Of a DNA stretch of 64,000 bases, positions 14,054-63,954 are shown piece by piece (the first letter of the stretch is position 1; each line of letters starts with the position of its first letter). Origin of the DNA: Phototrophicaceae bacterium (GTDB taxonomy: Bacteria; Chloroflexota; Anaerolineae; Aggregatilineales; Phototrophicaceae); the NCBI GenBank assembly GCA_965262165.1, contig OZ253499.1, forward strand, positions 2,808,046 through 2,872,045, written 5' to 3'. The position numbers and the translations under genes were made by a program. The notes under the pieces are model-generated. The model was not told the origin of the DNA, made no database searches, and saw only the letters and a list, made by a program, of their open reading frames with translations.

Positions 14054-14203
14054 GTATCCATGACTTTCTCTGGAACAGCCAAATTCAACAGGACCCAATA
14101 ATAAGGCAGGAAGTGGGCTCACTCAAGATCAATTAAGGACAATAGGGGAATGTGCAGAGGATTGACAATGGCAACGAAAACAAGTTATTATGCGCACCAT
14201 GTT

Positions 14204-14285
14204 GCCCTGATGGCGGAACTGGCAGACGCGCACGGTTGAGGGCCGTGTCCCTAACGGGGTGGAGGTTCGAGTCCTCTTCAGGGCA
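14204..14285 (+). tRNA. tRNA-Leu (anticodon GAG), class II with long variable arm
   Basis: Hand-folded. Acceptor GCCCTGA/TCAGGGC plus discriminator A. Anticodon arm CACGG-TTGAGGG-CCGTG. Long variable arm. T-arm GGAGG-TTCGAGT-CCTCT. No encoded CCA. Confidence 0.9.
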
Positions 14286-14294
14286 TCCTATCCG

Positions 14295-14320
14295 GCTTGC
14301 CGTTGTTGGCAAGCTTTTTT
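14295..14320 (+). terminator. Rho-independent terminator after tRNA-Leu
   Basis: GCTTGCC-gttgtt-GGCAAGC is a perfect 7-bp stem, followed directly by TTTTTT. Confidence 0.8.
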
Positions 14321-14388
14321 GTTGCGCACAATATGAAGCAGATGTAAACTGCCTTTGGAGAAACCGGGCCTTTAAGAAGGACACTTGC

Positions 14389-15453
14389 ATGAGTGAATCC
14401 ACCGACGCGATATTGCGCCGGGCGCACCAGTTGATTGAAGGCAATCAGCTTGAGCGAGCGCAAGAAGTATTGGCGCCTTTGCTTGAGACCGAGAGCAACA
14501 ACCCGGCGGTATGGTGGGTATATTCTCATGCAGCTACCGACAGCGCAATCGGTCTCGCCGCGCTTGAACGTGTGCTGCAGTTGGATCAAACCTATCCCGG
14601 CGCTCGTGAACTCAAAGCGGATGCTCTATCCGCGCAAGGTCTTGTAGCGAGCGAACTGGACACTGAGTTCGAATTGGCGAGTGCCCACTCGTCACCGCTC
14701 GACGAAAACGGCATTGACGATTGGGAATCCATAAAACCCGCGGTCGAAGGTGTATCTACTGGTCCGCGAACGGGACGCGGTTTTGTGCTGATAATCGTGG
14801 CGCTCTTGGCTTTGGCATCTGGCGCCGTGCTTGTCCTATCGGGCGCCATAAATATCGATGAGATCGTGTCGCTGTTTACAGAACCGACAGACGAGCCAAT
14901 CATTGTGGTTGCGGCGCCAACCGATGAAGCAACCGCTACCTCATTGCCCGTGCAGCCCGAATCGACTGACGAGCCGACCGTTGTGGCAACAGACATCGCG
15001 CCAACCGCCACCGGCGAACCCGCTGGAGAGCCAACGCCGCAGCCGACAGATGAAACGGAATCGCTGTCTGAGCCGACAATGGTCGCTACAATGTCTCCCT
15101 CAGCGGTAACGACATTCATCGAACGTGTCGCTGGGCAGCTCACTGACTTTTCGATAGACGAGTCTCAGAGCGCAGCAAGAGAGACACAACTCGGTATGAC
15201 TATCGATATTCTCGTGTGTGCTGCGCCTGGGCCAGAATTCAACCTGCGGCTTAACGGCGTCATGGATGCAGCGGTAAGCGTACATGAGAGCATCCCCGCG
15301 CAAACCGAGGCCTTCGCGGTGAGCCTGGTCAATTGCGATGACCCAAACGCAAGTGTACGGACAATTGGAGTGGCGCGTAGCATCCTGGATGATTTCGCCG
15401 AGGGTGAGATAGACGCCAAAACGTTCCAGCGAGCTTGGCGCCCCTTAGCCTAA
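14389..15453 (+). CDS. Membrane-anchored protein: N-terminal TPR-like helical domain, one TM helix, acidic Pro/Thr/Glu linker, C-terminal globular domain
   Basis: The ORF-track start (14152) runs through the tRNA-Leu gene and its terminator. The first in-frame ATG after the terminator is 14389 (MSESTDAILRRAHQLIEGNQLERAQ). The TM segment is FVLIIVALLALASGAVLVL. The linker is PTDEPIIVVAAPTDEATATSLPVQPESTDEPT. Confidence 0.6.
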   Translation: MSESTDAILRRAHQLIEGNQLERAQEVLAPLLETESNNPAVWWVYSHAATDSAIGLAALERVLQLDQTYPGARELKADALSAQGLVASELDTEFELASAHSSPLDENGIDDWESIKPAVEGVSTGPRTGRGFVLIIVALLALASGAVLVLSGAINIDEIVSLFTEPTDEPIIVVAAPTDEATATSLPVQPESTDEPTVVATDIAPTATGEPAGEPTPQPTDETESLSEPTMVATMSPSAVTTFIERVAGQLTDFSIDESQSAARETQLGMTIDILVCAAPGPEFNLRLNGVMDAAVSVHESIPAQTEAFAVSLVNCDDPNASVRTIGVARSILDDFAEGEIDAKTFQRAWRPLA

Positions 15454-21456: not shown

Positions 21457-21619
21457 CTTTCCTCCCCCAAAAAACGTTAATTCGCAAATGACACGCTTGA
21501 TGTGTGAGCAACGCAAGTGTCAGAAGCATTTTCAGTATAGGATTAGTAAATATTTTGCGCAAACGATAATTGGCGCAGTAGAGGCGTTGACCGGAAGACT
21601 AATTTGTGGAACAGTTAAA

Positions 21620-21648
21620 TTGACACCTTATCTGACCTATGTTAAACT
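21620..21648 (+). promoter_or_regulatory. Sigma-70-type promoter candidate for the erpA/iscA-like gene
   Basis: TTGACA (21620..21625), a 17-nt spacer, then TAAACT (21643..21648) preceded by TGT (extended -10-like). It lies about 35 nt upstream of the GGGAGAGGAAAG RBS and ATG 21682. Confidence 0.45.
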
Positions 21649-21681
21649 GACGACGGATCTGAAACAGGGAGAGGAAAGACA

Positions 21682-22107: not shown

Positions 22108-22193
22108 ATCAAGCGCAGTCCATCAGATTCAAAATTCTTCGCTAGAAGCGACCTTCTGGTGACTTTGCTAGGTCAGTTTGCCTCGACCGAATG

Positions 22194-22961: not shown

Positions 22962-22986
22962 CTTGAATATTCAGGTCCAAAGCTTT

Positions 22987-44135: not shown

Positions 44136-44141
44136 ATCTCT

Positions 44142-49629: not shown

Positions 49630-51213
49630 TTACCTGTCGATCGGCAATACGCCATAAGTACATGACTCATAATCCTGACCGACTATGACCTGGTAGTCAG
49701 TTTGGCGCGCCGGGTCTGCCTGTGTCTCAACCTGTTTCCTGGTCATGTTCAGCGCCTTTGTGATACCCGGTACTAAACTCCCCTTGCTCGCAGCTACATA
49801 ATCAACCAGCCGGCTCGATTCTACAGTCTCACCATTTGCTACCGGTCCAAGCGCCACGGAGTTGTAGCCATCCCAGCGCAATCGTTCGCTCGCAACCAGG
49901 TCCCAATACTCGTTGCCGGAACCGTTGTAAACGGCGATGGAAGGACCTGCCAATCCCACTTGGTTCTCCGACGGTGGTGTATAGAAGTCTCGCATTAGCT
50001 TCGTTACGGTTTCGTTTATTGGCAACAGGACAGATTCTCCGCTCGGCGTCCGCCAGTTCTGCGTATGGTATATGCGTCTAAAGGTGAAGTTTTGAATGCG
50101 GTCGAGATCAAGCTCGACCAAGTGTGGCAGAAGGCGCAGCATCGCGTCAAATGGAAAATTGGTATCGACTACCCCTTCCAGTTCGCCCCACAGCGAAGGC
50201 ACTGTGCTGATTAACCCATTGCTGCGCGCCTTGCGCCACATAGCTCGCAACAGTAATTGTTGGCGACGTCCGCGGTCCAGATCATCTGTATAGCGACGGG
50301 TGCGGGCATACCACAATGCGTCAAACCCATCAAAGGTATAATATCCGACATTCAGCGTTCGCCAGTCATATGCGCTGTTTTCTGCAACGCCAGTTTCTGT
50401 CCGAGTGACTGGATAATAATCCCGGTACGTGCAATCGACCGCGATGTCTACGCCACCGAGGCGATCTATGATGGACTTGAAGCCGGAAAAATTGGCCAGT
50501 GCGTAATAATGCACGTTGATGCCAAAATTGTAAAAAATCGTTTGCCGCAAGAGGCCGAATCCTCCGCCAGGCTGCCAACCAATATTTCTGCCGATCCCGA
50601 ACGCGGTGTTCAGCCGTCCCATTTTCCCGCTGGGAATGTAGACAAAGAGGTCTCGTGGCAAGTTTATCATCGATACTGTACCGGTTTCCGTGTTTAACGA
50701 TGCGATGATCATGGTATCTGTCCGCACGAAATTGTCCTCTGTCAGCTCATCATCGCCGCCTAGGAGTATGACATTTACCAAATCGTAGTCGCGACGAACG
50801 ACGGGTACCCGTGTGGGCACGGCAGTGCCGGAATGAACGAGACCCGCTCTTGGATCCGTGGGAAGGATTAGCCGAGGGAGATCTACAGGCTGGGGCGTTC
50901 CAGGAATGCCCGTAGCAACTGCTTCTGGCGATGGCGTAGGGGGACCTGGAGTACTGGTTAAGAATACCTGCTGCATCAAAAAGAGCCGGGATTCGTTCCG
51001 CAAACTGGCGCCGGATGCGTCTTCCGCCAGCGCTGTTCCTGTCGCCCGATATTCCTGCTGGCGAGCACTGCTGGTCGCGCCCATTTCACGCTGGCTATTC
51101 CAGAGATCCAAAACCTGAGACACTGTCCAGATCGTAGCCAGAAACAGGATAATGATGATCAGATAGAGGCTGAGTTTTAGCGATAGCCAAAGTAAGTTAC
51201 GAAGATTTCGCAT
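49630..51213 (-). CDS. LCP (LytR-CpsA-Psr) family glycopolymer-peptidoglycan ligase with C-terminal LytR_C domain
   Basis: 527 aa. N-terminal TM anchor. LCP core NVILLGGDDE...RTDTMIIASLN...VSMINLPRDLFV. C-terminal IAVYNGSGNEYWDLVASERL is LytR_C-like. Confidence 0.85.
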   Translation of the reverse strand: MRNLRNLLWLSLKLSLYLIIIILFLATIWTVSQVLDLWNSQREMGATSSARQQEYRATGTALAEDASGASLRNESRLFLMQQVFLTSTPGPPTPSPEAVATGIPGTPQPVDLPRLILPTDPRAGLVHSGTAVPTRVPVVRRDYDLVNVILLGGDDELTEDNFVRTDTMIIASLNTETGTVSMINLPRDLFVYIPSGKMGRLNTAFGIGRNIGWQPGGGFGLLRQTIFYNFGINVHYYALANFSGFKSIIDRLGGVDIAVDCTYRDYYPVTRTETGVAENSAYDWRTLNVGYYTFDGFDALWYARTRRYTDDLDRGRRQQLLLRAMWRKARSNGLISTVPSLWGELEGVVDTNFPFDAMLRLLPHLVELDLDRIQNFTFRRIYHTQNWRTPSGESVLLPINETVTKLMRDFYTPPSENQVGLAGPSIAVYNGSGNEYWDLVASERLRWDGYNSVALGPVANGETVESSRLVDYVAASKGSLVPGITKALNMTRKQVETQADPARQTDYQVIVGQDYESCTYGVLPIDR

Positions 51214-51283: not shown

Positions 51284-54200
51284 CTAGGGAGCCAGGAACA
51301 AAACAGGTATGTCGCAATAGCCATCTGTCGTAGGTTGGCCCGCTCTATCGACAATGCTAATACGTAGCCTGTGCAATCCAATGCCAAATATTTCGCTATT
51401 GAGTAACCCGAGAACATCGCTACTAACGGGTGCATATCCCTCAACATATTCGAAGTACTTATCCGACCAGGCGGGACGGATATCAATACGGTACATGGAC
51501 GTTTCGTGTAGTACAACTGAGCCAATGACCTCGATTATCCCGCGAATCTCTTGCATGGCAACCGGCGAAGTGATTTGCGCCAACTCTGTTTCGCAACCGA
51601 TCGCTTCTGGAGAATCGCTTTCGTTCGGAAATACAGGAATCGCTGTCGCCGGCGGAACGCTGGGGGTTGCAGGTAGCAGGAGGCTCTCCCCAGCCAATAC
51701 GCCTCGGATCGGTTCAAAGCAGTTGCCTTCTTGAATCTCGACAAGACTTGTGTTGATGCTTTCGGCAATGGCAAGCAGGGTGTCGCCCACCGCAACTTGG
51801 TACGATTGCCAATCAGGCGCCGCTTCACACGATTCAGTTTCGACCGCCCGGACGAACCCAACCGCAGTCGGCGTTGGCACCAATCTTGAATAGACAAATG
51901 GTAACATCGACGCTGTGGCACTCGGTTGAATCGTAGGCGTCGCGGTGGGCTGTAGCACAGGATCGATTTCCGTGACATTCGTGGAAGGTGTCGCCGTTTG
52001 ATCCATCGAAACAGCCTTTGTTGCAATTGCAGCTTCAGTTGCGCGTTCATCTGCTGTCGGCGTCAAACCGCTGCTCGCCGGCAAGGATTTCGTAACGGTT
52101 ACCGGGATTTTGGTCACGGTTTCGGGGACAGCGGCCGTGACGGAGTTTTCTGGAGTCTCGAACGCCGCGCCGATCTCTGCGGGTGTCTGTGCAGGCACCT
52201 CCACGACAGCGGTGCGTCCAATTGTTGTCGGTGGAACACCTCTGATTGCCGATCCGGGTGTCGGGCTAGCTTCCGCAGTCGAAGCCGCCGTGGCAGCAGA
52301 AATCGTTGATGTTGCCGTCCTATGCACAAGGGCGGTACGGCTCGCCCGTATCTCGCGCTGAACGCTTGTCGCTGTCTCCACTATGTCCAGATTGGCGATT
52401 GGGCTAGGAATGTCCGTCGTGGTTGGCGAAGCAGTGGGAGTCTCGGTCGCCGTGCGCTTGACCAGAGCCGTGCGGCTCGCTCGAATATCGCGCTGGCTCG
52501 TTTCCGTTGTAGCCACAATATCGTCAGTTGTGGTGGGGCTCGGCAATTCCGTCGTGAATGGCAAAGCTGTGGGAGTTGCGGTCGCAGTACGCTTGGCCAG
52601 AGCCGTGCGACTCGCTCGAATATCAGGTTCTACGCTTGTTGCTGTCCCCGGAGCTTCGTCGGTCGCGGTGGACAATGGAACTTCGGTCGTGGTTGGCGAA
52701 GCGGCGGGAGTTGCGGACGCTGTGCGCTTGACCAGAGCCGTGCGACTCGCTCGAATATCAGGTTCCACGCTTGTCGCTGTCCCCGGAGCTTCGTCAGTCT
52801 CAGTGGACAATGGAACTTCGGTGATGGTTGCTGCAGCGGAATAGGTTGCGGTCGCCATGCGCTTGACAAGAGCCGTGCGACTCGCTTGAATCTCCGATTC
52901 TACGCTTATTGCTGTACCCGTAGCTTCACCAGTCTCGGTGGACAATGGAATTCCGGTGGTGGTTGCATCAGCGGCGAGAGTTGCGGTCGCTGTGCGCTTG
53001 ACCAGAGCCGTGCGGCTCGCTCGAATCTCCGGTTCTACGTTTGTTGCTGTCCCCGGAGCTTCGTCAGTCGCGGCGGACAATGGAACTTCGGTCGTGGTAG
53101 GCGAAGCGGTGGGAGTTGCGGTCGCTGTACGCTTGGCCAAAGCCGTGCGACTCGCTCGAATATCGCGCTGGCTCGTTTGCGCTGTAACCACAATATCCTC
53201 AGTTGCGGTGGGGCTCGGAACTTCCGTGTCGGTTGGCGAAGCGGTGGGAGTTGCGGTCGCAGTGCGCTTGACCAAAGCCGTGCGGCTCGCTCGAATATCG
53301 CGCTGGCTCGTTTCCGTTGTAGCCACAATAGCGTCAGTTGTGGAGGGGCTCGGAACTTCGGTGGTGGTTGGCGAAGCGGTGGGAGTTTCGGTCGCTGTGC
53401 GCTGGATCAGAGCCGTTCGACTCGCTTGAATCTCCGATTCTACGCTTATAGCTGTACCCGTAGCTTCACCAGTCTCGGTGGACAATGGAATTCCGGTGGT
53501 GGTTGCATCAGCGGCGAGAGTTGCGGTCGCCATGCGCTTGGCCAGAGCCGTGCGACTCGCTCGGATATCGCGTTGGCTTGTTTCCGTTGTAGCCACAATA
53601 TCGGCAGTTGCGGTGGGGCTCGGAACTTCCGTTTCGGTCGCTGCAGCGGTGGGAGTGGCGGTCGCTGTGCGCTTGACCAGAGCCGTGCGACTCGCTCGAA
53701 TCTCAGGTTCTGCGCTTGTTGCAGTCGCCGTAACTTCGTCAGTCGCGGTGGACAATGGAACTTCGCTGATGGTTGGCGAAGCGGTATGCGTTGCGGTCGC
53801 TGTGCGCTTGATGAGAGCCGTGCGGCTCGCTCGAATCTCCGGTTCTACGCTTGTTGCAGTCCCAGAGACTTCGTTAGGCTCGGTGGACAATGGAATTCCG
53901 GTCGTGGTTGCTGCAGCGGTGGGAGTTGCGGTCGCCATGCGCTTGACAAGAGCCGTGCGACTCGCTTGAATCTCCGATTCTACGCTTATTGCTGTACCCG
54001 TAGCTTCACCAGTCTCGGTGGACAATGGAATTCCGGTGGTGGTTGCATCAGCGGCGAGAGTTGCGGTCGCCATGCGCTTGACAAGAGCCGTGCGACTCGC
54101 TCGGATATCGCGTTGGCTTGTTTCCGTTGTAGCCACAATATCGGCAGTTGCGGTGGGGCTCGGAAGTTCCGTTTCGGTCGCTGTGTGCTTGATGAGAGCC

Positions 54201-57200
54201 GTGCGGCTCGCTCGAATATCGCGCTGGCTTGTTTCCGTTGAAACCACAGTTTCCGCAGTTTCGGTGGGGCTCGGAACTTCGGTCTTGGTTGCAGCAGCGG
54301 CGGGAGTTGCGGTCGCTGTGCGCTTGGCCAGAGCCGTGCGACTCGCCCGGATATCGCGTTGGCTTGTTTCCGTTGTAGCCACAATATCGTCAGTTGCGGT
54401 GGGGCTCGGAACTTCCGTTTCGGTTGCAGCAGCGGTATGGGTCGCGGTTGCTGTGCGCTTAACCAGAGCCGTGCGACTCGCTCGAACATCGCGCTGGCTT
54501 GTTTCCGTTGTAACCACAAATTCGTCAGTTGCAGTGGGACTCGGCAATTCCGTCGTGAATGGCAAAGCGGTGGGAGTTGCGGTCGCTATGCGCTTGATCA
54601 GAGCTGTGCGACTTGCGCGAATATCGCGCTGGCTTGTTTCCGTCGTAAACACAGATTCCTCAGTTTCGGTGGGGCTCGGAACTGCGGTATCGGTTGCAGC
54701 AGCGGTATGAGTTGCGGTCGCCGTGCGCTTGACCAGAGCCGTGCGACTCGCTCGAATCTCAGGTTCTGCGCTTGTTGCAGTCGCCGTAACTTCGTCAGTC
54801 GCGGTGGACAATGGAACTTCGCTGATGGTTGGCGAAGCGGTATGCGTTGCGGTCGCTGTGCGCTTGACCAGAGCCGTGCGACTCGCTCGAATGTCGCGCT
54901 GGCTTGTTTCCGTTGAAACCGCAATATCGTCAGTTGCAGTCGGGCTCGGAACTGCGGTGCTGGTTGGCGAAGCGGTATGCGTTGCGGTCGCCGTGCGCTT
55001 GACCAAAGCCGTGCGGCTCGCTCGAATATCGCGCTGGCTTGTTTCTGTTGTTACCAGAGTTTCCTCAGTTTCGGTAGGACTTGGAACTTCCGTCGTGGTT
55101 GCAGCAGCGGGTAGGGTTGCGGTCGCTGTCCCTTTGACCTGAGCCGTTCGACTCGCTCTAATATCGCGCTGGCTTGATTCCGTTGTTACCACAATATCCT
55201 CAGTTTCGGTGGGGCTCGGAACTTCGGTCGCGGTTGCTACAGAGGTATGCGTTGCGGTCGCTGTGCGCTTGACGAGAACCGTGCGACTTGCTCGAATATC
55301 GCGCTGGCTTGTTTCCGTCGTAAACACAGATTCCTCAGTTTCGGTTGGGCTCGGAACTTTCGTTTCGGTTGCTGCAGCGGTATAGGTTGCGGTCGCTATG
55401 CGCTTGATCAGAGCTGTGCGACTCGCGCGAATATCGCGCTGGCTTGTTTCCGTCGTAAACACAGATTCCTCAGTTTCGGTGGGGCTCGGAATGTCCGTCT
55501 CGGTTGCTGCAGCGGTGGGAGTTGCGGTTGCTGTACGCTTGGCCAGAGCCGTGCGGCTCGCTCGAATCTCCGGTTCTACGTTTGTTGCTGTCCCAGAAAC
55601 TTCGTCAGTCTCGGTGGACAATGGAATTCCGGTGGTGGTTGCATCAGCGGCGAGAGTTGCGGTCGCCATGCGCTTGACAAGAGCCGTGCGACTCGCTCGG
55701 ATATCGCGTTGGCTTGTTTCCGTTGTAGCCACAATATCGGCAGTTGCGGTGGGGCTCGGAAGTTCCGTTTCGGTCGCTGTGTGCTTGATGAGAGCCGTGC
55801 GGCTCGCTCGAATATCGCGCTGGCTTGTTTCCGTTGAAACCACAGTTTCCGCAGTTTCGGTGGGGCTCGGAACTTCGGTCTTGGTTGCAGCAGCGGCGGG
55901 AGTTGCGGTCGCTGTGCGCTTGGCCAGAGCCGTGCGACTCGCCCGGATATCGCGTTGGCTTGTTTCCGTTGTAGCCACAATATCGTCAGTTGCGGTGGGG
56001 CTCGGAACTTCCGTTTCGGTTGCAGCAGCGGTATGGGTCGCGGTTGCTGTGCGCTTAACCAGAGCCGTGCGACTCGCTCGAACATCGCGCTGGCTTGTTT
56101 CCGTTGTAACCACAAATTCGTCAGTTGCAGTGGGACTCGGCAATTCCGTCGTGAATGGCAAAGCGGTGGGAGTTGCGGTCGCTATGCGCTTGATCAGAGC
56201 TGTGCGACTTGCGCGAATATCGCGCTGGCTTGTTTCCGTCGTAAACACAGATTCCTCAGTTTCGGTGGGGCTCGGAACTGCGGTATCGGTTGCAGCAGCG
56301 GTATGAGTTGCGGTCGCCGTGCGCTTGACCAGAGCCGTGCGACTCGCTCGAATCTCAGGTTCTGCGCTTGTTGCAGTCGCCGTAACTTCGTCAGTCGCGG
56401 TGGACAATGGAACTTCGCTGATGGTTGGCGAAGCGGTATGCGTTGCGGTCGCTGTGCGCTTGACCAGAGCCGTGCGACTCGCTCGAATGTCGCGCTGGCT
56501 TGTTTCCGTTGAAACCGCAATATCGTCAGTTGCAGTCGGGCTCGGAACTGCGGTGCTGGTTGGCGAAGCGGTATGCGTTGTAACCACAATATCGTCAGTT
56601 GCGGTGGGGCTCGGAACTGCGGTGGTGGTTGCTGCAGCGGTGGGAGTTGCGGTCGCTGTTCGCTTGGCCAGAGCCGTGCGGCTCGCTTGAATCTCAGGTT
56701 CCACGCTTGTTGCAGTCCCAGAGACTTCGTCAGTCTCGGTGGACAATGGAACTTCGCTGGGGGTTAGCGAAGCTGTGGGAGTTGCGGTCGCTGTGCGCTT
56801 GGCCAGAGCCGTGCGGCTCGCTCGAATCTCAGCTTCTACGCTTTTTGCAGTCTCCGGAGCTTCGTCGGTCGCGGTGGACAATGGAATTCTGGTGATGGTT
56901 GCAGCAGCGGTATGGGATGGGCTCGCTGTAAGCTTGACCAGCGCCGTGCGGCTCGCTTGAATCTCAGGCTCCACGCTTGTTGCAGTCTCCGAAACTTCGT
57001 CAGTCGCGGTAGACAATGGAACTACAGTCGTGGTAGGCGAAGCGGTGGAAGTTGCGGTCGCTGTGCGCTTGACCAGAGCCGTGCGGCTCGCTCGAATCTC
57101 TCGTTCTACGCTTGTTACAGTCTCCGGAGCTGCGTCGGTCGCGGTGGACAATGGAATTTTGGACGTGGTTGCAGCAGCGGTGGGAGTTGCGGTCGCTGTG

Positions 57201-60200
57201 CGCTTGGCCAGAGCCGTGCGGCTCGCTCGAATCTCCGGATCTACGCTTGTTGCTGTCCCAGAAACTTCGTCAGTCTCGGTGGACAATGGAATTTTGGACG
57301 TGGTTGCAGCAGCGGTGGGAGTTGCGGTCGCTGTCCGCTTAACCACAGCCGTGCGACTCGCTTGAATATCAGGTTCTACGCTTGTCGCAGTCTCCGAAAC
57401 TTCGTCAGTCGCGGCAGACAATGGAACTTCCGTCGTGGTTGGCGAAGCGGTGGGAGTTGCGGTCGCTGTGTGCTTGATGAGAGCCGTGCGGCTCGCTCGA
57501 ATCTCAGGCTCCACGCTTGTTGCAGTCTCCGAAACTTCGTCAGTCGCGGTAGACAATGGAACTACAGTCGTGGTAGGCGAAGCGGTGGAAGTTGTGGTCG
57601 CTGTGCGCTTGACCAGAGCCGTGCGGCTCGCTCGAATCTCTCGTTCTACGCTTGTTACAGTCTCCGGAGCTGCGTCGGTCGCGGTGGACAATGGAACTTC
57701 GATCGTGGTTGGCGAAGCGGCGGGAGTTGCGGACGCTGTGCGCTTGGCCAGAGCCGTTCGACTCGCTCGAATATCGCGCTGGCTCGTTTCTGTTGTTACC
57801 ACAGTTTCCTCGCTTACGGTGGGGCTCGGAATGTCCGTCGTGGTTGCCGCAGCAGGTTGGGTTGCGGTCGCTGTCATTTTCACTGGAGCCGTGCGACTCG
57901 CTCGAATCTCAGGTTCTACGCTTGTTGCAGTCCCCGAAACTTCGTCAGTCGCGGTGGACAATGGAACTTCGCTGGGGGTTGGCGATGCGGTGGGAGTTGC
58001 GGTCGCTGTGCGCTTAACCAGAGCCGTGCGTCTTGCGCGAATATCGCGCTGGCTTGTTTCCGTTGTAACCACAATATCGTCAGTTGCGGTGAGGCTCGGA
58101 ATGCCCGTCTCGGTTGCAGCAACTGTATGGGTTGCGGTCGCCGTGCGCTTGACCAGAGCCGTGCGACTCGCTCGAATATCGCGCTGGCTTGTTTCCGTTG
58201 TAACCACAATATCGTCAATTGCGGTGAGGCTCGGAATGCCCGTCTCGGTTGCAGCAACTGTATGGGTTGCGGTCGCCGTGCGCTTGACCAGAGCCGTGCG
58301 ACTCGCGCGAATATCGCGCTGGCTTGTTTCCGCTGGACCCACAATTTCCGCGGTTTCGGTGGGGCTCGGCACTTCCGTCGCTGTGCGCTTGGCCAGAGCC
58401 GTGCGACTCGCCCGGATATCGCGTTGGCTTGTTTCCGTTGTAACCACAATATCCTCAGTTGCGGTGGGGCTCGGAACTTCCGTGTCGGTTGGCGAAGCGG
58501 TGGGAGTTGCGGTCGCAGTGCGCTTGACCAGAGCCGTGCGGCTCGCGCGAATATCGCGCTGGCTTGTTTCTGTTGTTACCAGAGTTTCCTCAGTTTCGGT
58601 GGGACTTGGAACTTCCGTCGTGGTTGGCGAAGCGGTGGGAGTTGCGGTCGCTGTACGCTTGGCCAAAGCCGTGCGACTCGCGCGAATATCGTGCTGGCTT
58701 GTTTCGGCTGACTCCCCAGTTTCTTCAGTCGTCGGGCTCGGAATGTCCGTCGTGGTTGCCGTAGCGGTAGGAGTTGTGGTCACTGTCCTTCTCAAGAGCG
58801 CCGTTCGACTCGCGGGAATCTCCGGTTCTGCGCTTGTTGCAGTCTCCGGAGCTTCGTCAGTCTCGGTGGACAATGGAATTCCGGTGGAGGTTGCATCAGC
58901 GGCGAGAGTTGCGGTCGCCGTGCGCTTGACCAGAGCCGTGCGACTCGCTCGAATATCGCGCTGGCTCGTTTCCGCTGGACCCACAATTTCCGCAGTTTCG
59001 GTGGGGCTCGGAATGGCAGTCGTGGTTGCATCAGCGGGTTGGGTTGCGGTTGCTGTGCGCTTGACCAAAGCCGTGCGGCTCGCTCGAATATCGCGCTGGC
59101 TTGTTTCTGTTGTTACCACAGTTTCCTCAGTTTCGGTGGGGTTCGGAAATCCCGTCGTGGTTGCAGCAGCGGGTTGGGTTGCGGTCGCTGTGCGCTTGGC
59201 CAGAGCCGTGCGGCTCGCGCGAATCTCCGGTTCTACGCTTGTTGCAGTTTCCGAAACTTCGTCAGTCGCCGTTGTGCTCGAAATGTCCGTCGCGGTCTCT
59301 GCAGCGGCGTGAGTTGCGGTCGCCGTCTTTTTCACCAGAGCCGTGCGACTCGCTTGAATCTCATGTTCTACGCTTGTTGCATTCCCCGAAACTTCGTCAG
59401 CCGCGGTTGGGCTCGGAATGTCCGTCTCGGTTGCTGCAGCGGTACGTGTTGCGGCCGCCGTCCTTTTCACTAGCGCCGTGCGACTCGCTCGAATCTCAGA
59501 TTCTACGCTTGTTGCTGTCCCCGAAACTTCGCCAGTCGGGGTAGACAATGGAATTTCCGTCTTGGTTGGCGAAGCCGTGGGAGTTGCGGTCGCTGTGCGC
59601 TTGACCAGAGCCGTGCGACTCGCGCGAATATCGCGTTGGCTTGTTTCCGTTGTAGCCACAATATCGTTAGTTGCCGTGGGGCTCGGAACTTCCGTTTCGG
59701 TCGCTGCGGCAGGTTTGGTAGCGGTCGCTGTGCGCTTGACCAAAGCTGTGCGGCTCGCTCGAATCTCCGGTTCTAGGCTTGTTGCTGTCCCAGAAACTTC
59801 GTCAGTCATGGTGGACAATGGCACTTCGGTCGTGGTTGCAGCAGCGATTTGGGTTGCGGTAGCTGTCCTTTTCACTGGAGCCGTGAGACTCGCTTGAATC
59901 TCAGGTTCTACGCTTGTTGCAGTCCCAGAGACTTCGTCAGTCGCGGTGGACAATGGAACTTCGGTCTTGGTCGGCGATGCGGTGGGAGTTGCGGTAGCTG
60001 TGTGCTTGACTAGAGTCGTCACGGCCTCGTCCGTTTGCGTGGGCATCTTGGAGGAGGTTGCAACCGTCTCAATCTCCGTGGCCAGCAGTTTGACTACTGG
60101 CGTGCGTCTAATGGGCGCCGCAGTGCCTCTGGTCGCAGCAGGCTCCGTCGCAACGAGAGTATCGGTCGCCGGTTGGTCGACTTTCAGATCGACATCAGTT

Positions 60201-60802
60201 GGGCCAATACTGGAAACTGGCACAACTGTTGTCGTTCCATCGCGCGAGACAGACTTTTCGTCCGGCGAGTCCGTGGGCAGTATCGTTTCCGAGTCTATCT
60301 CTGGCGTAACTTGAGTTGGATTCTCAATCTCGTTGGGCTTTCGCGTTGAGAACGCGGTTGCGGCAGATGCGTCTTCAGTTGCTTTCTTCGCAAGCGCCGT
60401 CCGCTTTTCCGCTGTCGAGATAGCACGAATGTCGACAGGCGTTTCCGTCGCCCCTGCCGCCGTCGCGACAGGTGTTGCGCTTTCGCTCGGGAATGCGGAA
60501 GCGGAGCTGATGATTTCAGGCGAAGTTGTGCTTAGGGTTTCCGTAGCCGGTGGCAAATCACTCGCGATTGGCGCAATTGTCATAGGCGGCTGCGTCTCAG
60601 CGGCCGTCGTCGTTGGCGGTTCAACAGTGATTGTCACGGCAATTGCTGTGGCTGAAGGAAGCCCAGTTGCGACCGGCGTAGACGTCGGCGCAGGCAGGCT
60701 ACGGGTAGAGATCGCTAGAAGAACTGCAAAAAGCAGTGCGAATATGAGAGCCGCCAATGCAAATAGCGCGACAACGAACTCATTGCCAATGTCGCGTTGC
60801 AT
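51284..60802 (-). CDS. Giant (3,172 aa) envelope repeat protein: N-terminal TM anchor, ~57 tandem 45-aa repeats (basic core plus Thr/Pro/Glu linker), C-terminal LysM and terminal ~100-aa domain
   Basis: A single uninterrupted 9,519-nt ORF. TM helix FVVALFALAALIFALLFAVLLAI. Repeat core [DE]IRASRTAL[VAI]KRTATAT. LysM motif YQVAVGDTLLAIAESINTSLVEIQEGNCFEPIRGVLAGESLLLP at about 51671..51802. The ATG is 2 nt after the stop of the upstream kinase-like gene. Confidence 0.75.
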   Translation of the reverse strand: MQRDIGNEFVVALFALAALIFALLFAVLLAISTRSLPAPTSTPVATGLPSATAIAVTITVEPPTTTAAETQPPMTIAPIASDLPPATETLSTTSPEIISSASAFPSESATPVATAAGATETPVDIRAISTAEKRTALAKKATEDASAATAFSTRKPNEIENPTQVTPEIDSETILPTDSPDEKSVSRDGTTTVVPVSSIGPTDVDLKVDQPATDTLVATEPAATRGTAAPIRRTPVVKLLATEIETVATSSKMPTQTDEAVTTLVKHTATATPTASPTKTEVPLSTATDEVSGTATSVEPEIQASLTAPVKRTATATQIAAATTTEVPLSTMTDEVSGTATSLEPEIRASRTALVKRTATATKPAAATETEVPSPTATNDIVATTETSQRDIRASRTALVKRTATATPTASPTKTEIPLSTPTGEVSGTATSVESEIRASRTALVKRTAAATRTAAATETDIPSPTAADEVSGNATSVEHEIQASRTALVKKTATATHAAAETATDISSTTATDEVSETATSVEPEIRASRTALAKRTATATQPAAATTTGFPNPTETEETVVTTETSQRDIRASRTALVKRTATATQPADATTTAIPSPTETAEIVGPAETSQRDIRASRTALVKRTATATLAADATSTGIPLSTETDEAPETATSAEPEIPASRTALLRRTVTTTPTATATTTDIPSPTTEETGESAETSQHDIRASRTALAKRTATATPTASPTTTEVPSPTETEETLVTTETSQRDIRASRTALVKRTATATPTASPTDTEVPSPTATEDIVVTTETSQRDIRASRTALAKRTATEVPSPTETAEIVGPAETSQRDIRASRTALVKRTATATHTVAATETGIPSLTAIDDIVVTTETSQRDIRASRTALVKRTATATHTVAATETGIPSLTATDDIVVTTETSQRDIRARRTALVKRTATATPTASPTPSEVPLSTATDEVSGTATSVEPEIRASRTAPVKMTATATQPAAATTTDIPSPTVSEETVVTTETSQRDIRASRTALAKRTASATPAASPTTIEVPLSTATDAAPETVTSVEREIRASRTALVKRTATTTSTASPTTTVVPLSTATDEVSETATSVEPEIRASRTALIKHTATATPTASPTTTEVPLSAATDEVSETATSVEPDIQASRTAVVKRTATATPTAAATTSKIPLSTETDEVSGTATSVDPEIRASRTALAKRTATATPTAAATTSKIPLSTATDAAPETVTSVEREIRASRTALVKRTATATSTASPTTTVVPLSTATDEVSETATSVEPEIQASRTALVKLTASPSHTAAATITRIPLSTATDEAPETAKSVEAEIRASRTALAKRTATATPTASLTPSEVPLSTETDEVSGTATSVEPEIQASRTALAKRTATATPTAAATTTAVPSPTATDDIVVTTHTASPTSTAVPSPTATDDIAVSTETSQRDIRASRTALVKRTATATHTASPTISEVPLSTATDEVTATATSAEPEIRASRTALVKRTATATHTAAATDTAVPSPTETEESVFTTETSQRDIRASRTALIKRIATATPTALPFTTELPSPTATDEFVVTTETSQRDVRASRTALVKRTATATHTAAATETEVPSPTATDDIVATTETSQRDIRASRTALAKRTATATPAAAATKTEVPSPTETAETVVSTETSQRDIRASRTALIKHTATETELPSPTATADIVATTETSQRDIRASRTALVKRMATATLAADATTTGIPLSTETDEVSGTATNVEPEIRASRTALAKRTATATPTAAATETDIPSPTETEESVFTTETSQRDIRASRTALIKRIATATYTAAATETKVPSPTETEESVFTTETSQRDIRASRTVLVKRTATATHTSVATATEVPSPTETEDIVVTTESSQRDIRASRTAQVKGTATATLPAAATTTEVPSPTETEETLVTTETSQRDIRASRTALVKRTATATHTASPTSTAVPSPTATDDIAVSTETSQRDIRASRTALVKRTATATHTASPTISEVPLSTATDEVTATATSAEPEIRASRTALVKRTATATHTAAATDTAVPSPTETEESVFTTETSQRDIRASRTALIKRIATATPTALPFTTELPSPTATDEFVVTTETSQRDVRASRTALVKRTATATHTAAATETEVPSPTATDDIVATTETSQRDIRASRTALAKRTATATPAAAATKTEVPSPTETAETVVSTETSQRDIRASRTALIKHTATETELPSPTATADIVATTETSQRDIRASRTALVKRMATATLAADATTTGIPLSTETGEATGTAISVESEIQASRTALVKRMATATPTAAATTTGIPLSTEPNEVSGTATSVEPEIRASRTALIKRTATATHTASPTISEVPLSTATDEVTATATSAEPEIRASRTALVKRTATATPTAAATETEVPSPTATADIVATTETSQRDIRASRTALAKRMATATLAADATTTGIPLSTETGEATGTAISVESEIQASRTALIQRTATETPTASPTTTEVPSPSTTDAIVATTETSQRDIRASRTALVKRTATATPTASPTDTEVPSPTATEDIVVTAQTSQRDIRASRTALAKRTATATPTASPTTTEVPLSAATDEAPGTATNVEPEIRASRTALVKRTATATLAADATTTGIPLSTETGEATGTAISVESEIQASRTALVKRMATATYSAAATITEVPLSTETDEAPGTATSVEPDIRASRTALVKRTASATPAASPTTTEVPLSTATDEAPGTATSVEPDIRASRTALAKRTATATPTALPFTTELPSPTTTDDIVATTETSQRDIRASRTALVKRTATETPTASPTTTDIPSPIANLDIVETATSVQREIRASRTALVHRTATSTISAATAASTAEASPTPGSAIRGVPPTTIGRTAVVEVPAQTPAEIGAAFETPENSVTAAVPETVTKIPVTVTKSLPASSGLTPTADERATEAAIATKAVSMDQTATPSTNVTEIDPVLQPTATPTIQPSATASMLPFVYSRLVPTPTAVGFVRAVETESCEAAPDWQSYQVAVGDTLLAIAESINTSLVEIQEGNCFEPIRGVLAGESLLLPATPSVPPATAIPVFPNESDSPEAIGCETELAQITSPVAMQEIRGIIEVIGSVVLHETSMYRIDIRPAWSDKYFEYVEGYAPVSSDVLGLLNSEIFGIGLHRLRISIVDRAGQPTTDGYCDIPVLFLAP
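54010..54984. repeat. Copy A of a 975-bp identical block (higher-order duplication inside the array)
   Basis: The sequence matches 55606..56580 at a 1,596-nt offset. I checked both boundaries base by base (mismatch at 54009/55605 and at 54985/56581). Overlapping ORF translations in several frames are identical (e.g. 54359..54916 vs 55955..56512). Confidence 0.85.
55606..56580. repeat. Copy B of the 975-bp identical block
   Basis: Same evidence as copy A. Its upper junction (about 56575..56600) creates an aberrant repeat unit lacking the basic core (protein ...TATDDIVVTT|HTASPTSTAVPSPTATDDIAVSTE...). Confidence 0.85.
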
Positions 60803-60804
60803 GG

Positions 60805-63800
60805 CTATTCCTCGACTGTTGGCATCAGTCGCGTCGGTAAAGCGAGGTGAAAGACGCTGCCTTCGCCGGCTTTACTGTCGATCCACAGATCTCCAGCATG
60901 TGCGCGTGCAAAGGCTCTGGCAACTGTCATTCCAACACCGGTATCGCTGAGTCCTTCAATCTTGGGGTTTTCGTGCAGATACTTGCGGGCAAAGACACGA
61001 GGCAGATCATTTGCTGAGATTCCGCCACCGTAGTCTTTAATACTTATTCGAATCGTTTCGACGGCCAGGTCACGTTCTGGCGACTGCATCGAAACCAACG
61101 CCACCGTAACCAAGACGGGCGCTCCTTCAGCAGAAACATCACATGCGTTTCGAAGCAGGTGAAGCAAGACTTGCTTAATGCAATCCGGATCTACGGCGAT
61201 TCTTGGCAGATCATCGTCGACAGTCAATTCGAGCGCTAGTCGCTTATCACGGATATTAGCGGACAGCGAATTGACTGTCTCATCCAGCAGTTCCACGAGA
61301 TCAACTTCTTCATACGACAATACAAAGCTGACATGATCGTCGTGCTTTTGGCTCATCAATTCTTCGAGCATGTCCGTCAGCCGTCCCAAATTTAAGGAGA
61401 CGCGCTGCAAGACTTCGTGTTGCGCCGCGCCAAGTATCCCTATCGACTCCTTCAACAGAATATCCGTGCATTCCGATATCGCCGTTAAGGGAGCCTGTAT
61501 TGCGCGAACAAGCCCAAACGTTTCTTCCATATCGGCGAGCCGGTTTGCCGATGTAGCTCCTTCGCTTTGGTCATTTTTCTCCAGTTGAACCTGGTGAGCG
61601 GCCGTCAGGGCGGCTTGCGCGTCACCGAGTTCCAGCGTTAGCTTCTCCCGCTGTTCATTCAACAGCGAAACTGTATCTTGCAGTTCCTGCAGCCGCGCTC
61701 GGAGCGCAGCCTCACCGGACGATTCCGCAGATTCGGACAAGGATTCAGCCAAACGCGCGGTTAATTGATCGCGAATACGAAGAAGGTTGTCTCTTTCGCT
61801 AGAAAGGCCAGCGATGCCGCGTTGCAATTGCGTCCGCTGTTGAAAGCCTGTCTCGAGCTGAGCTTGCATATTTCGTATTCGACTTTCTAGTTCGCGATTG
61901 TCGTTGTCACGAGATTCGAACCGCCCCAGAATGTCTTGGTAGTCGCGCCGCATTTCTTCGCGCAGGTTTAGCAGCGAATCGTGATCCGCGCTCAAGCGTT
62001 TCAGTTGATGTTGCAAAACATCATGGGTTCGGCCATCACCTTCGACGAGTTTGGCGTTTTCACTTGCCAGGATATCGCGCTCATGCCAAATCTCAGCGGC
62101 CCCGCGTTTCAAGGCCTTTCGCTCGGCATAGAGTTGGATGAGCACCTGTGTCATGCTGCTCAGTTCGACTTCTACGCCCAGCGTTCGCAGTTTCGTCACA
62201 ATAGCGGTCAATCGCCGTTGCAATTGCTCGCGCTCCATTTCTAATTGGCGGGTTTCGGCAGAAAGCTGTTCGAGAATCGCATTCGGATCAGTGGCGGAAA
62301 TCGACTCGTTCTGGGCTCGCAGATTGTTGATTTGACGTCGCAGTTGATCGCAAACTGTTGACTGGAGGTTTTGGGTCTTTTGGGCGTATTCTCGTATGAC
62401 TTGCGCCAAGGCATCGTCGCTAACGGCACTGTAGACTTGCACGACGGTTTCGGCGTCCAAGACCAGTTTGGCATGCGCGCCGCATCGTTCCATAAGTTGA
62501 GATTGCTCATCGAACACGGTGGTTATCTGTTGCGATACGGCAACATCGTCGATTCGGTCACTCAAGTTGTTCAACATTGCGATCCGCTCGTTGTGCAATT
62601 GCGCGCGTAAGTCGGCAATTTGCAGGCGGCGCCTCACTATTTGACCCGCGCTATCTTCCAGGCTAGCTGCCAACTCACGGCGAGCCTTTTCTCGCATCTC
62701 GCTGCCATCATCTCGCGACGGCACTCGATCTAAAATGGACTGTATGGCGTGCTCTTCCGCCAGAAATGCCGCAGCCTCAGCATCAAAGCTCCAAGCCAGG
62801 ATATGACCGGCCATTTGGCAAAGATCGCCCAAAACTGCACGTTGCTGACGAGAAAACTCCCTTTGTCGATAAGGCATACAAGCAAGCATCAAAGCCAGGA
62901 CTTCATCGTTAACAGATATTGGCTGAACATACACCGTACCGGTAGCGCCGACATTCAAACTACGGAATAGCGCTTCAACTTCTTGGCTATGTTGATCAGG
63001 TTCAAGAATCCTTTGTTCGCGTCGCATCGCAGCGTCAACTAATGTAGGCTGACTGCCCAGATTTAGAGTCATGTCATCGAGACTCTTCCCGGTCACCGCG
63101 TCAAGGCCGGCGATGATGTTGGCATAATCTTCACCTTCTATGCGGAGCAACATGCAGACTTCGGCGTCCAATAGCTCGAGGGCAGTAGCGACCACCTGCT
63201 GCGGGATTCCAGAGTTCTCCCGCGTATCCATCATCATGCCCAGCGCCCTCACCAAATGACCTTGCTCAACGGGTCCTTGCGATGGGACACCTTGCGCGGA
63301 CGCGTCAGGCTCCTCAATAATAAGCGCGTCCAATCCTGGTCCCGGCGCAACAGCTCCCCCATGGACAGACCTAGGATGTGATGTTGGCTCGATTCCTTGA
63401 TCCAGGCCATGCTCGAGCGCTGCAACAAAATGCCGATGTATGACCACCGGCACTAATGCAAGCGCAGCGAGATAGGCCCAGCGAGCGCTTCCAAGATAAC
63501 TCCCTGTCACCCCGGATTCTACGAATTGCCAAGTATCCCATCCGTTGCCCAAAACAATTAGAAGAAAGAAAAGACACTTTAGAGGCGCATCGACAATTCG
63601 CCCGATATTGAATAGGGCAGCCAAAAACCCGAATAGCCCGATGGCTACAGTTAATCCAGACCATATTGGCGCCAGATCGCTTGCATTGAACATCACGTCT
63701 GTTTCAAATTCGCGAAACCATTCGTTGACGGTGTGAGCAAACAGGATCAGGATTAGGATAATCGCTACTGTCAACAAGAGGTTTGCGCGCACGCCCCGTT

Positions 63801-63954
63801 TCGCATCGCTTGAAACAAGGAACGCCCAAGAGATAATCACAATCGAGAGAGTCTGTGCTAGCCTCTCCAAAGGAGGCATAAGCAAGGACGGTTCATATGA
63901 TGAAACCAGAGAGAATAATGCGGCCACCATCATCGCTATCCAAGTGCCTACCAA
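60805..63954 (-). CDS. Sensor histidine-kinase-like protein: multi-TM N-terminus, GAF domain, ~430-aa coiled coil, degenerate HisKA (no phospho-acceptor His), intact HATPase_c
   Basis: 1049 aa from TTG 63954. The frame stays open to the window edge (64000), so the true start may lie outside. N-box LLHLLRNACDVS, G1 IKDYGGGIS and G2 DTGVGMTVA are present. The H-box reads FGLVRAIQAPLTAI, where SHELRTPLTAI is expected. Confidence 0.75.
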   Translation of the reverse strand: MVGTWIAMMVAALFSLVSSYEPSLLMPPLERLAQTLSIVIISWAFLVSSDAKRGVRANLLLTVAIILILILFAHTVNEWFREFETDVMFNASDLAPIWSGLTVAIGLFGFLAALFNIGRIVDAPLKCLFFLLIVLGNGWDTWQFVESGVTGSYLGSARWAYLAALALVPVVIHRHFVAALEHGLDQGIEPTSHPRSVHGGAVAPGPGLDALIIEEPDASAQGVPSQGPVEQGHLVRALGMMMDTRENSGIPQQVVATALELLDAEVCMLLRIEGEDYANIIAGLDAVTGKSLDDMTLNLGSQPTLVDAAMRREQRILEPDQHSQEVEALFRSLNVGATGTVYVQPISVNDEVLALMLACMPYRQREFSRQQRAVLGDLCQMAGHILAWSFDAEAAAFLAEEHAIQSILDRVPSRDDGSEMREKARRELAASLEDSAGQIVRRRLQIADLRAQLHNERIAMLNNLSDRIDDVAVSQQITTVFDEQSQLMERCGAHAKLVLDAETVVQVYSAVSDDALAQVIREYAQKTQNLQSTVCDQLRRQINNLRAQNESISATDPNAILEQLSAETRQLEMEREQLQRRLTAIVTKLRTLGVEVELSSMTQVLIQLYAERKALKRGAAEIWHERDILASENAKLVEGDGRTHDVLQHQLKRLSADHDSLLNLREEMRRDYQDILGRFESRDNDNRELESRIRNMQAQLETGFQQRTQLQRGIAGLSSERDNLLRIRDQLTARLAESLSESAESSGEAALRARLQELQDTVSLLNEQREKLTLELGDAQAALTAAHQVQLEKNDQSEGATSANRLADMEETFGLVRAIQAPLTAISECTDILLKESIGILGAAQHEVLQRVSLNLGRLTDMLEELMSQKHDDHVSFVLSYEEVDLVELLDETVNSLSANIRDKRLALELTVDDDLPRIAVDPDCIKQVLLHLLRNACDVSAEGAPVLVTVALVSMQSPERDLAVETIRISIKDYGGGISANDLPRVFARKYLHENPKIEGLSDTGVGMTVARAFARAHAGDLWIDSKAGEGSVFHLALPTRLMPTVEE

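Follow-up and report, generated by a model that had tools for sequence, protein, structure and literature searches.

Proteins that bind the bacterial cell wall through LysM modules (CBM50/PF01476), among them the AcmA-type autolysins, LytE/LytN and the P60-related Thermus protein 4uz2, share a beta-alpha-alpha-beta fold that attaches non-covalently to peptidoglycan. The serine-rich repeat glycoproteins (Fap1, GspB, SraP) and other mucin-like Gram-positive proteins are giants built of hydroxy-amino-acid-rich repeats; the former are composed of SxSx dipeptides, carry an LPXTG/sortase anchor and are encoded with an accessory SecA2/Y2 and glycosyltransferase locus. The fungal wall-integrity sensor Wsc1 has a Cys-rich head that binds the wall, a nanospring of mannosylated, Ser/Thr-rich sequence and a transmembrane segment, and is linked to signalling (PMC2885430). 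In Actinomyces oris, LcpA, a LytR-CpsA-Psr (LCP) enzyme, glycosylates the surface protein GspA (PMC6381275). Filamentous Chloroflexota can have a multilayered envelope comprising membrane, peptidoglycan, an inner layer and a shared, protein-decorated outer layer (PMC13319060), and sponge-associated Anaerolineae encode peptidoglycan synthesis, with CBM50/LysM as their most abundant carbohydrate-binding module family (PMC6306507). Here we describe a giant open reading frame (ORF) of a Phototrophicaceae bacterium (Chloroflexota; Anaerolineae), located at 51284..60802 on the minus strand of a 64,000-nt stretch of contig OZ253499.1 (assembly GCA_965262165.1, positions 2,808,046 to 2,872,045), hereafter termed the window. 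The encoded protein, termed the giant, consists of a predicted membrane anchor, an array of 57 tandem units and a LysM-containing C-terminal head, and may tether the membrane to the cell wall. No specific description of this protein, or of the gene module to which it belongs, was found in the literature on Chloroflexota.

The giant ORF starts with ATG and extends over 9,519 nt, stop codon included, encoding 3,172 residues; the ORF listing and the translation agree in displaying no internal stop. GC content over the array is 0.58-0.60, compared with 0.51-0.56 across most of the window, and the AT skew of the plus strand over the same region is -0.25 to -0.34. The plus strand opposite the array holds further ORFs of 599-639 residues (52322-54241, 56912-58711 and 57435-59312), which are by-products of the periodic composition of the array. 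Three features mark the minus strand as the coding strand: its frame has no interruption, homologues exist for each of its two ends, and the pattern across codon positions is consistent with coding. The 9.5 kb are kept in frame though the units differ by ~25% at the DNA level. When compared with conspecific contigs, the tail (230 residues) has a ratio of non-synonymous to synonymous substitution rates (dN/dS) of 0.29-0.42, against 0.11-0.23 for the downstream LCP gene, and the tail value argues for a functional gene. The exact giant and LCP sequences have no entry in the public gene index, a collection that does not include the source assembly; among species-representative genomes, from which the window's own species was not recovered, the best tail identity was 71%.

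The C-terminal head is preceded by a non-repetitive spacer (residues 2862-2997; 51812..52219, minus strand), which displays the family-conserved motif LPFVYSRLVPTPTA and Cys2992 in (near-)invariant columns of alignment A1. The LysM module (residues 2998-3044; 51671..51811, minus strand) was identified by matching a family profile to LysM structures in the PDB. With the single sequence, the Pfam LysM model returned E=0.02 and 15.2 bits, under the cut-off of 20.9, over model positions 1-30 of 43. The profile built from the tail and 12 homologues matched solved LysM structures, including Ecp6 (PDB code 4b8v; E=1.2e-13), 4uz2 (5e-11), LytN and LytE, with E-values ranging to 1e-3; matches to structures of the LysM wall proteins lie between 1e-13 and 1e-8. 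Two small homologues, P0011 and P0012, carry a precomputed PF01476 annotation, and the AlphaFold model of the 230-residue tail presents the beta-alpha-alpha-beta order expected of LysM (E56-60, H67-73, H78-85, E98-102; predicted local distance difference test score (pLDDT) ~64-70). The protein ends in an Ig-like beta-sandwich (residues 3069-3172; 51287..51598, minus strand), modelled by AlphaFold with eight strands at pLDDT 76-91. Foldseek searches of the PDB with this domain gave a best E-value of 3e-4 and target-normalised TM-scores of ~0.5, with matches scattered over NPC2, CBM, CARDB, FN3-like, Y_Y_Y and E-set structures, and Pfam revealed no significant family. The model thus supports the fold class of the terminal domain but not a specific family. 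NCBIfam returned nothing meaningful for the head or the N-terminal region, DipM (E 0.0016) being far under its cut-off.

The giant holds only four cysteines, Cys2992 before the LysM, Cys3028 within it, and Cys3070 and Cys3163 in the terminal domain, and the corresponding tail positions C50, C86, C128 and C221 are invariant in the family (alignments A1 and A5). Four invariant cysteines in an otherwise Cys-free protein suggest an extracytoplasmic, disulfide-bonded head. This head, LysM and Ig-like sandwich together, would be expected to fix the C-terminus to the glycan strands of peptidoglycan. Unlike the described LysM wall proteins, the giant has a single LysM with one Cys before and one inside it, as suggested by the profile alignment to fungal Ecp6; this LysM is fused to an uncharacterised Ig-like domain and preceded by a membrane anchor and a 2,560-residue array, and the giant lacks a catalytic domain.

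At the opposite end, the sole strongly hydrophobic segment of the protein spans residues ~4-39 (Kyte-Doolittle peak 3.11) and contains the putative anchor helix FVVALFALAALIFALLFAVLLAI (residues ~9-31; 60710..60778, minus strand; Kyte-Doolittle), preceded by the eight-residue stub MQRDIGNE. The first 35 residues are 51-71% identical across orthologues and are therein as conserved as the LysM, while the Ig-like domain retains 39-66%. The N-terminus is presumed to lie inside and to be held in the membrane by the anchor. Residues 32-300 (59903..60709, minus strand) form a non-periodic, Thr/Pro/Ala/Glu-rich region, delimited from the translation, which contains core-like relics of the repeat unit, DIRAISTAEKRTALAKKAT and PIRRTPVVKLLAT, that recur in orthologues; the relic elements in L006 and L008 read STAE[EK]RTALAKT and PIRRTPVVKP.

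The array occupies residues 301-2861 (52220..59902, minus strand), as defined by regular expression, Tandem Repeats Finder and translation. Tandem Repeats Finder reported a period of 135 nt (also 270 and 405) in overlapping arrays from ~52413 to 60019 with 72-79% matches, and a loose regular expression for the core retrieved exactly 57 units, spaced by 45 residues in 52 cases and by 35, 37, 37, 44 and 68 residues in the rest. Each unit comprises a 17-residue basic core, [DE]IRASRTAL[VAI]KRTATAT, and a 28-residue acidic linker rich in Thr, Pro, Ala and Glu. The linkers are of two subtypes, ...PSPTETEE.VVTTETSQR before units that start with D and ...PLSTATDEVSGTATSVEP before those that start with E. 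Thr (24.6%), Ala (18.0%), Ser (9.3%) and Pro (6.8%) are prominent, Thr and Ser together reaching 34%, and the array contains 254 Lys and Arg, 300 Asp and Glu, 12 aromatic residues and no Cys. A scan of the unit consensuses for hydrophobic moment, comparing helix and strand periodicity, gave no consistent signal.

An earlier note on this DNA, made from the sequence alone, had described an uninterrupted ORF of this length with one N-terminal hydrophobic helix, a degenerate Thr/Pro/Ala/Glu-rich stretch with decayed unit copies, 57 units, a LysM motif and a final domain of ~100 residues. This anatomy is reproduced in almost every detail: the frame is free of stops, hydropathy recovers the single helix, residues 32-300 hold the relics, the core count is 57, the LysM lies where it had been placed according to the family profile, the PF01476 annotation of the homologues and the AlphaFold pattern, and the last ~104 residues form a confidently modelled all-beta sandwich.

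Selection acts differently on the two parts of the unit. Over the 51 units whose next core lies exactly 45 residues on (the terminal unit has no successor), the ratio of non-synonymous to synonymous polymorphism (pN/pS) is 0.29 for the core and 0.98 for the linker; the 17-residue core is under purifying selection, while the linker is not. Third codon positions vary under invariant core residues, for example Ser5, Thr7, Ala14 and Thr17. Together with the low pN/pS, this synonymous variation indicates that the core peptide is kept by selection, beyond what recent gene conversion would produce. The earlier note had also reported that central copies are nearly identical and edge copies degenerate. 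This holds only in part: from one end of the array to the other, units compared in pairs average 0.55-0.68 identity, and no gradient runs from centre to edge. Identical copies do exist, and they derive from a single exact duplication of 975 nt revealed by comparing the coding sequence with itself: 55606..56580 equals 54010..54984 (both minus strand) at an offset of 1,596 nt. Either a segment was duplicated here very recently, or this is the sole stretch where the assembly needs re-checking.

The unit could not be placed in any named repeat family, in agreement with the earlier note. A Pfam search with 600 residues of the array at E-values up to 10 returned FOP_dimer alone, with no individually significant stretch; its E-value of 2.2e-8 is a score summed over repeats, and this identity was rejected. 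None of the curated repeat models (Ig/Big, FN3, cadherin, collagen, RHS/YD, PKD and others) matched the 45-residue unit, and the Pfam results for array and tail included no eukaryotic-type adhesion or eukaryotic-like protein (ELP) domains. A hidden Markov model built from 46 distinct units was compared with 1.84 billion representative proteins and produced 10 hits at E<=0.001, of which seven are frameshifted orthologue fragments and three are unrelated repeats. On this evidence, the 45-residue unit is a repeat family confined to one Chloroflexota lineage, absent from Pfam and, in effect, from the representative proteins searched.

The giant has much smaller relatives, which represent its true family. 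A search with the last 340 residues, a query that the earlier note had proposed, retrieved 12 homologues; 10 are fragments from Chloroflexota assemblies and two, P0011 (394 residues) and P0012 (478 residues), are complete (E-values of 2.7e-11 and 3.3e-9; 29-30% tail identity). Both display an N-terminal hydrophobic segment, a Pro/Thr-rich linker, a LysM and the same terminal domain, and their linker is plain and aperiodic over ~250-300 residues. P0011 is encoded 29 nt after a full-length kinase orthologue (28% identity over 1,086 residues, E 6e-114), without an LCP neighbour; P0012 lies directly before an LCP gene, without a kinase neighbour, and has NUDIX and beta-lactamase-like genes upstream as in the related locus L002. 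The retention of parts and context in these proteins indicates that the giant is an expanded-linker orthologue of a conserved Chloroflexota envelope protein, and the giant has the parts, the Cys pairs and the kinase and/or LCP neighbour of an unnamed anchor-linker-LysM-Ig family. A profile search with the Ig-like terminal domain found only 10 further small proteins or fragments. One protein of 170 residues (P0025; L025, 591-1103) comprises a LysM and the same beta-sandwich in an unrelated Min-system context, near minCDE and a WXG100 gene; since it stands alone, the head module also occurs without anchor, linker, kinase or LCP. A PMT/PMT_2 gene (protein O-mannosyltransferase-like, GT-C; L022, 8249-10402, minus strand) was observed ~1 kb from P0011, and its position hints that the family linkers may be O-glycosylated.

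The kinase-array-LCP locus was identified in 20 other assemblies (L001, L003, L004 and 17 more, L002, L005-L019 and L024). Independent assembly of the same locus elsewhere shows that the array is no assembly artefact, a possibility that the earlier note had wished to see checked; the window frame is free of stops, and frameshifts are seen in the conspecific contigs. In these contigs (L001, L003 and L004), the flanking proteins are 95-99% identical to those of the window and the array regions measure 9,090, 9,144 and 9,491 nt with ~50, 51 and 55 cores, respectively. The array genes span 2264-11353 in L001, 1676-10819 in L003, 1746-11236 in L004 and 5311-11041 in L002. In pairwise DNA comparison with the conspecific contigs, the units beyond ~nt 1,000 no longer correspond in order or in linker subtype, and the indels seen there are alignment artefacts. 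Antisense ORFs are annotated in place of the broken real gene in L001 (5755-8370, minus strand, 871 residues) and L003 (5519-9157, minus strand, 1,212 residues), which makes the locus systematically prone to mis-annotation.

Scanning one genome per species yielded 17 loci, two of which (L020 and L021) are short matches at the LysM level only. All 17 stem from bins of Chloroflexota, Anaerolineae or 'Phototrophicaceae', several of which bear sponge-bin names (APA, COS, RHO); the APA_bin prefix is used for symbionts of Aplysina aerophoba (PMC11706023). Eight of the contigs, most of them apparently short-read to judge by record name, stop partway through the array, and the frame is still open where the contig ends. 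Six orthologues are intact, namely L006 (1,722 residues), L008 (1,573), L012 (2,296), L013 (1,582), L018 (1,945) and L019 (2,394); they contain 19-40 units and two of the six lie on complete chromosomes. The comparison of copy number suggested by the note gives ~50-57 units among strains and 19-40 among other species.

The consensus of the unit is specific to each genome, while units within a genome are alike. Clade A units read IRASRTALVKRTATATAT...SVERD with a period of 41-47 residues and the core IRASRTALVKR. The L002 unit is KRPTRETVRQIRASVTPEIKRTATAS, with the core form RETVRQIRASVTPEIKR. In the distant clade B, the unit is ANLTLTAIRETVVARRELATVRPSPTA, with a period of 45-74 residues and the core form ANLTLTAIRETVVARRELA (drifted to APANLTLTAIR). 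A shared RETV...R element links the three, and all three alternate a basic/hydrophobic core with an acidic Thr/Pro/Ala linker. A consensus of its own in each genome, combined with likeness within the genome, indicates concerted evolution of a homologous unit. The concerted evolution proposed by the note is thus upheld mainly by comparison between genomes, and not by the centre-to-edge gradient on which it had been based. Clade B cores (L013, L018, L019, L011 and L015) display an N-x-T sequon whose middle residue is hydrophobic but variable (ANLT, ANMT, ANVT or ANIT) in nearly every unit, which may be structural or an N-glycosylation site; the clade A core, including that of the window, has no Asn.

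The giant is flanked by two genes on its own strand, with which it forms a conserved trio. Upstream, as the first gene of the three, lies a sensor histidine kinase of 1,049 residues (60805..63954, minus strand; Pfam HATPase_c, 1.6e-17), which comprises ~5-6 transmembrane helices within residues 1-180, a GAF domain at 252-386, ~400 residues of coiled-coil-like sequence and the HATPase_c end. The GAF matches are weak, under the curated Pfam cut-offs, and in NCBIfam the kinase core alone was matched, all under equivalog cut-offs. Only 2 nt separate the kinase stop from the giant ATG, with GAGGA just upstream (...GAGGAATAGCCATG...), and the two genes are predicted to be translationally coupled. 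No response regulator is adjacent to the kinase, and the genes further upstream are divergently oriented and encode NUDIX and beta-lactamase-like proteins. Downstream, at a distance of 70 nt, starts an LCP glycopolymer transferase of 527 residues (49630..51213, minus strand; Pfam LytR_cpsA_psr, 2.4e-29; TIGR00350 above cut-off) with an N-terminal transmembrane segment at residues 4-38. A promoter/terminator scan detected no terminator-like site between giant and LCP, the first on that strand coming after a tRNA-Pro, and the arrangement is operon-like. Each locus with upstream sequence has a full-length orthologue of the kinase immediately before the repeat gene, and all related loci have an LCP gene immediately after it. 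Where a locus extends far enough, the giant is preceded by the kinase and followed by LCP, AIR-synthase-related gene, aminotransferase and HMG-CoA reductase in that order, down to 39% kinase and 58% LCP identity. The conserved neighbourhood contains no maturation protease, cyclase or transporter.

Other parts of the window are also rich in envelope genes (1909-6680, 20338-24681 and 26229-27731, minus strand). They encode a 1,063-residue Wzy_C protein (O-antigen-ligase-like), a DUF348+G5 protein, a protein with four SH3_3 domains, an M50 site-2 protease with PDZ and a LysM+Peptidase_M23 protein whose LysM scores 6e-13. A thiolase, an HMG-CoA-synthase-like gene and HMG-CoA reductase stand in a row at 42966-46498 (minus strand), as they do in L001 (16138-20239), and in relatives this row is followed by an OB_ChsH2_C/DUF35 gene; we take it to resemble the archaeal-style route into the mevalonate pathway by way of thiolase, HMGCS and DUF35, here in a bacterial genome. 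ARAGORN called an 86-nt tRNA-Leu(gag) at 14203-14288 (plus strand) inside a 433-residue ORF (14152..15453, plus strand). The Rfam tRNA model at gathering score did not report 14203-14288 and the ORF has no Pfam hit; either the tRNA call or the ORF is spurious.

The arrangement of anchor, array and head is best explained, with a probability of about 0.5, if the giant tethers the membrane to the wall and its hydrophilic chain makes up a brush or matrix that lies inside the envelope or extends past it. The giant would be a bitopic envelope protein, with the eight-residue cytoplasmic stub and the transmembrane helix fixing the N-terminus in the membrane and the Cys-bracketed LysM and Ig-like sandwich binding the C-terminus to peptidoglycan. 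Between them, ~2,960 predicted extracytoplasmic residues, rich in Thr, Ala, Ser, Pro and Glu and almost free of aromatic residues, would form an extended or disordered, O-glycosylated chain. The Pro/Thr-rich linker of an ancestor-type protein of 394-478 residues would have become a tandem array in this lineage, its copy number altered by unequal recombination and its units homogenised within the genome. The resulting long polyampholyte, probably O-glycosylated, may loop through or out of a multilayered envelope, and the protein would be produced along with both the kinase and the LCP enzyme. The earlier note had suggested an envelope tether or ruler, or a sheath or matrix component; a tether or matrix is compatible with everything found and gains strength from the kinase and LCP neighbours. 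With ~2,560 residues of repeat, and a copy number that differs between strains (~50-57) and species (19-40), the giant does not readily fit the picture of a taut ruler.

Several observations weigh against a tether of this kind. If membrane and peptidoglycan lie close together, ~2,560 linker residues and a conserved core are poorly explained. Conservation of the core also suggests a specific partner, and the tether names none. AlphaFold modelling of four units with an alignment of paralogues gave one model at a mean pLDDT of 57, in which each basic core pairs with an acidic linker strand to form a meander of beta-hairpins rather than a disordered chain, and four others at 28-36, too weak a result to build on. 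The N-terminal stub has no clear positive-inside pattern, so that it is chiefly the LysM and the Cys pairs that point to the proposed topology. Finally, the frames of L001, L003 and L004 are broken into 17, 4 and 13 segments, respectively, with all flanking genes intact. The orthologue of L002, a fourth long metagenome contig, is likewise split by frameshifts between intact flanks, and in L004 the unique N-terminal region has lost one base at nt 660 (GCC to GC). These frameshifts could be consensus errors in repeats (13-20x coverage), or real alleles reflecting inactivation or phase variation.

By analogy with Wsc1/Mid2, the giant could instead act as a co-sensor of the adjacent kinase, its head gripping the wall, its glycosylated repeats serving as a spring or tether and its transmembrane helix signalling strain or the state of the wall to the kinase, a proposal that we regard as tentative and rather unlikely. 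The likeness lies in a Cys-containing wall head, a long Ser/Thr-rich spacer and a single transmembrane segment, and is one of analogy, not homology. The head of the giant is C-terminal, giving the opposite polarity, and is built on LysM, not on a WSC domain; no WSC match was found with Pfam, and the giant has four cysteines compared with eight in WSC. Its spacer is roughly ten times longer than the Ser/Thr region of Wsc1. Since its predicted cytoplasmic part measures eight residues, any signalling would need a separate kinase. In favour of a co-sensor are the apparent translational coupling of the two genes, a pairing kept in every locus with upstream sequence down to 39% kinase identity, and the kinase orthologue next to P0011. 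The kinase itself, with ~5-6 transmembrane helices, short loops and no sizeable extracytoplasmic domain, is of the intramembrane-sensing type, the anchor region is as conserved as the LysM (51-71%) and more so than the Ig-like domain, and both the Wsc1 architecture (PMC2885430) and the PMT-family glycosyltransferase near P0011 fit the same pattern. These points are offset by the lack of an adjacent response regulator, by P0012, which has no kinase neighbour, and by the N-terminus of P0011, which on reading its sequence resembles a cleavable signal peptide rather than an anchor. Moreover, 19-57 units with fast turnover fit a calibrated spring poorly, and composition inflates identity in an Ala/Leu/Val/Phe-rich helix. 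By the same analogy, and with similarly low expectation, kinase, LysM-Ig protein and LCP might constitute an undescribed wall-status sensing module, a prokaryotic counterpart of the Wsc1 nanospring that would report strain or thickness of the envelope to the kinase; in Anaerolineae whose named relatives are sponge symbionts, the tether would have been lengthened (19-57 units) to span a thick multilayered envelope.

The LCP neighbour raises another explanation, which we consider doubtful: the giant would serve as an acceptor or scaffold for the LCP enzyme, which would move lipid-linked glycopolymer either to its Thr/Ser repeats or to peptidoglycan near the head, producing a mucin-like wall glycoprotein. 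The array, with 34% Thr and Ser, offers abundant acceptor residues, the LCP gene follows directly in all related loci with no terminator-like site between and also stands beside P0012, and glycosylation of GspA by LcpA provides a precedent (PMC6381275). GspA resembles the giant as a surface protein tied to an LCP enzyme; it is, however, a small sortase substrate, and glycosylation of its type goes hand in hand with LPXTG/sortase anchoring, which the giant lacks. The giant has neither an LPXTG motif nor homology to GspA, and its LCP link is gene adjacency only, which in itself identifies no substrate; LCP enzymes act mostly on peptidoglycan, and P0011 lacks an LCP neighbour. The serine-rich repeat glycoproteins share with the giant the hydroxy-amino-acid-rich repeats, the variable copy number and the glycosylation expected on a monoderm surface. 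They differ from it in that the giant has a 45-residue unit, a LysM, a transmembrane helix and no LPXTG, and is surrounded by a kinase, an LCP, a tRNA and an AIR-synthase-related gene.

No less doubtful is a role as a host-facing symbiosis factor, in which the LysM-Ig head alone would hold the protein to the wall and the array would project outward into the sponge matrix, where it might serve for adhesion, for camouflage or as a shield against phage and phagocytosis, with diversifying pressure behind its rapid repeat turnover. Related loci all come from bins of Chloroflexota, Anaerolineae or 'Phototrophicaceae', several of them sponge-named, length and unit sequence vary strongly between genomes, and repeat proteins recur in sponge symbionts (PMC6306507). 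Against this role, a hydrophobic segment of 23 or more residues is conserved and is anchor-like rather than a signal peptide, selection on the core is purifying and not diversifying, and Pfam detected no eukaryotic adhesion or ELP domains; the sponge names, in addition, belong to the related loci and not to the window or the small relatives. That the locus holds no functional gene for a surface protein, whether because it was misassembled, because it is decaying as a pseudogene or because it encodes a precursor of multi-core peptides, is highly improbable: the 975-nt exact duplicate could be a mis-join, L001, L003 and L004 carry frameshifts (one of those in L004 in the unique region) and a dibasic-KR core of 17 residues repeated 57 times superficially recalls multi-core precursors, but 9.5 kb remain in frame across units ~25% divergent in DNA, synonymous variation underlies invariant core residues, six other genomes have intact orthologues, the tail is under purifying selection, and the precursor was rejected because no maturation protease, cyclase or transporter lies nearby and anchor and LysM argue against it.

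Giant low-complexity, wall-anchored surface proteins are already familiar, whereas the repeat, the terminal domain and the three-gene module reported here are undescribed. The giant represents an extreme member of an unnamed anchor-linker-LysM-Ig family, and its pairing with kinase and LCP defines an uncharacterised envelope module in Chloroflexota, a phylum in which the make-up of the envelope is the subject of ongoing work. Because short-read bins break inside the gene, and because gene callers report antisense ORFs or fragments at this locus in three of the four long-read contigs with a broken frame, the gene is systematically missing from symbiont gene catalogues. If glycosylated and exposed, the giant would be a candidate for a leading role in the surface properties of abundant sponge symbionts, with a bearing on recognition by host or phage; if it signals to the kinase, it would represent a new wall-sensing mechanism.

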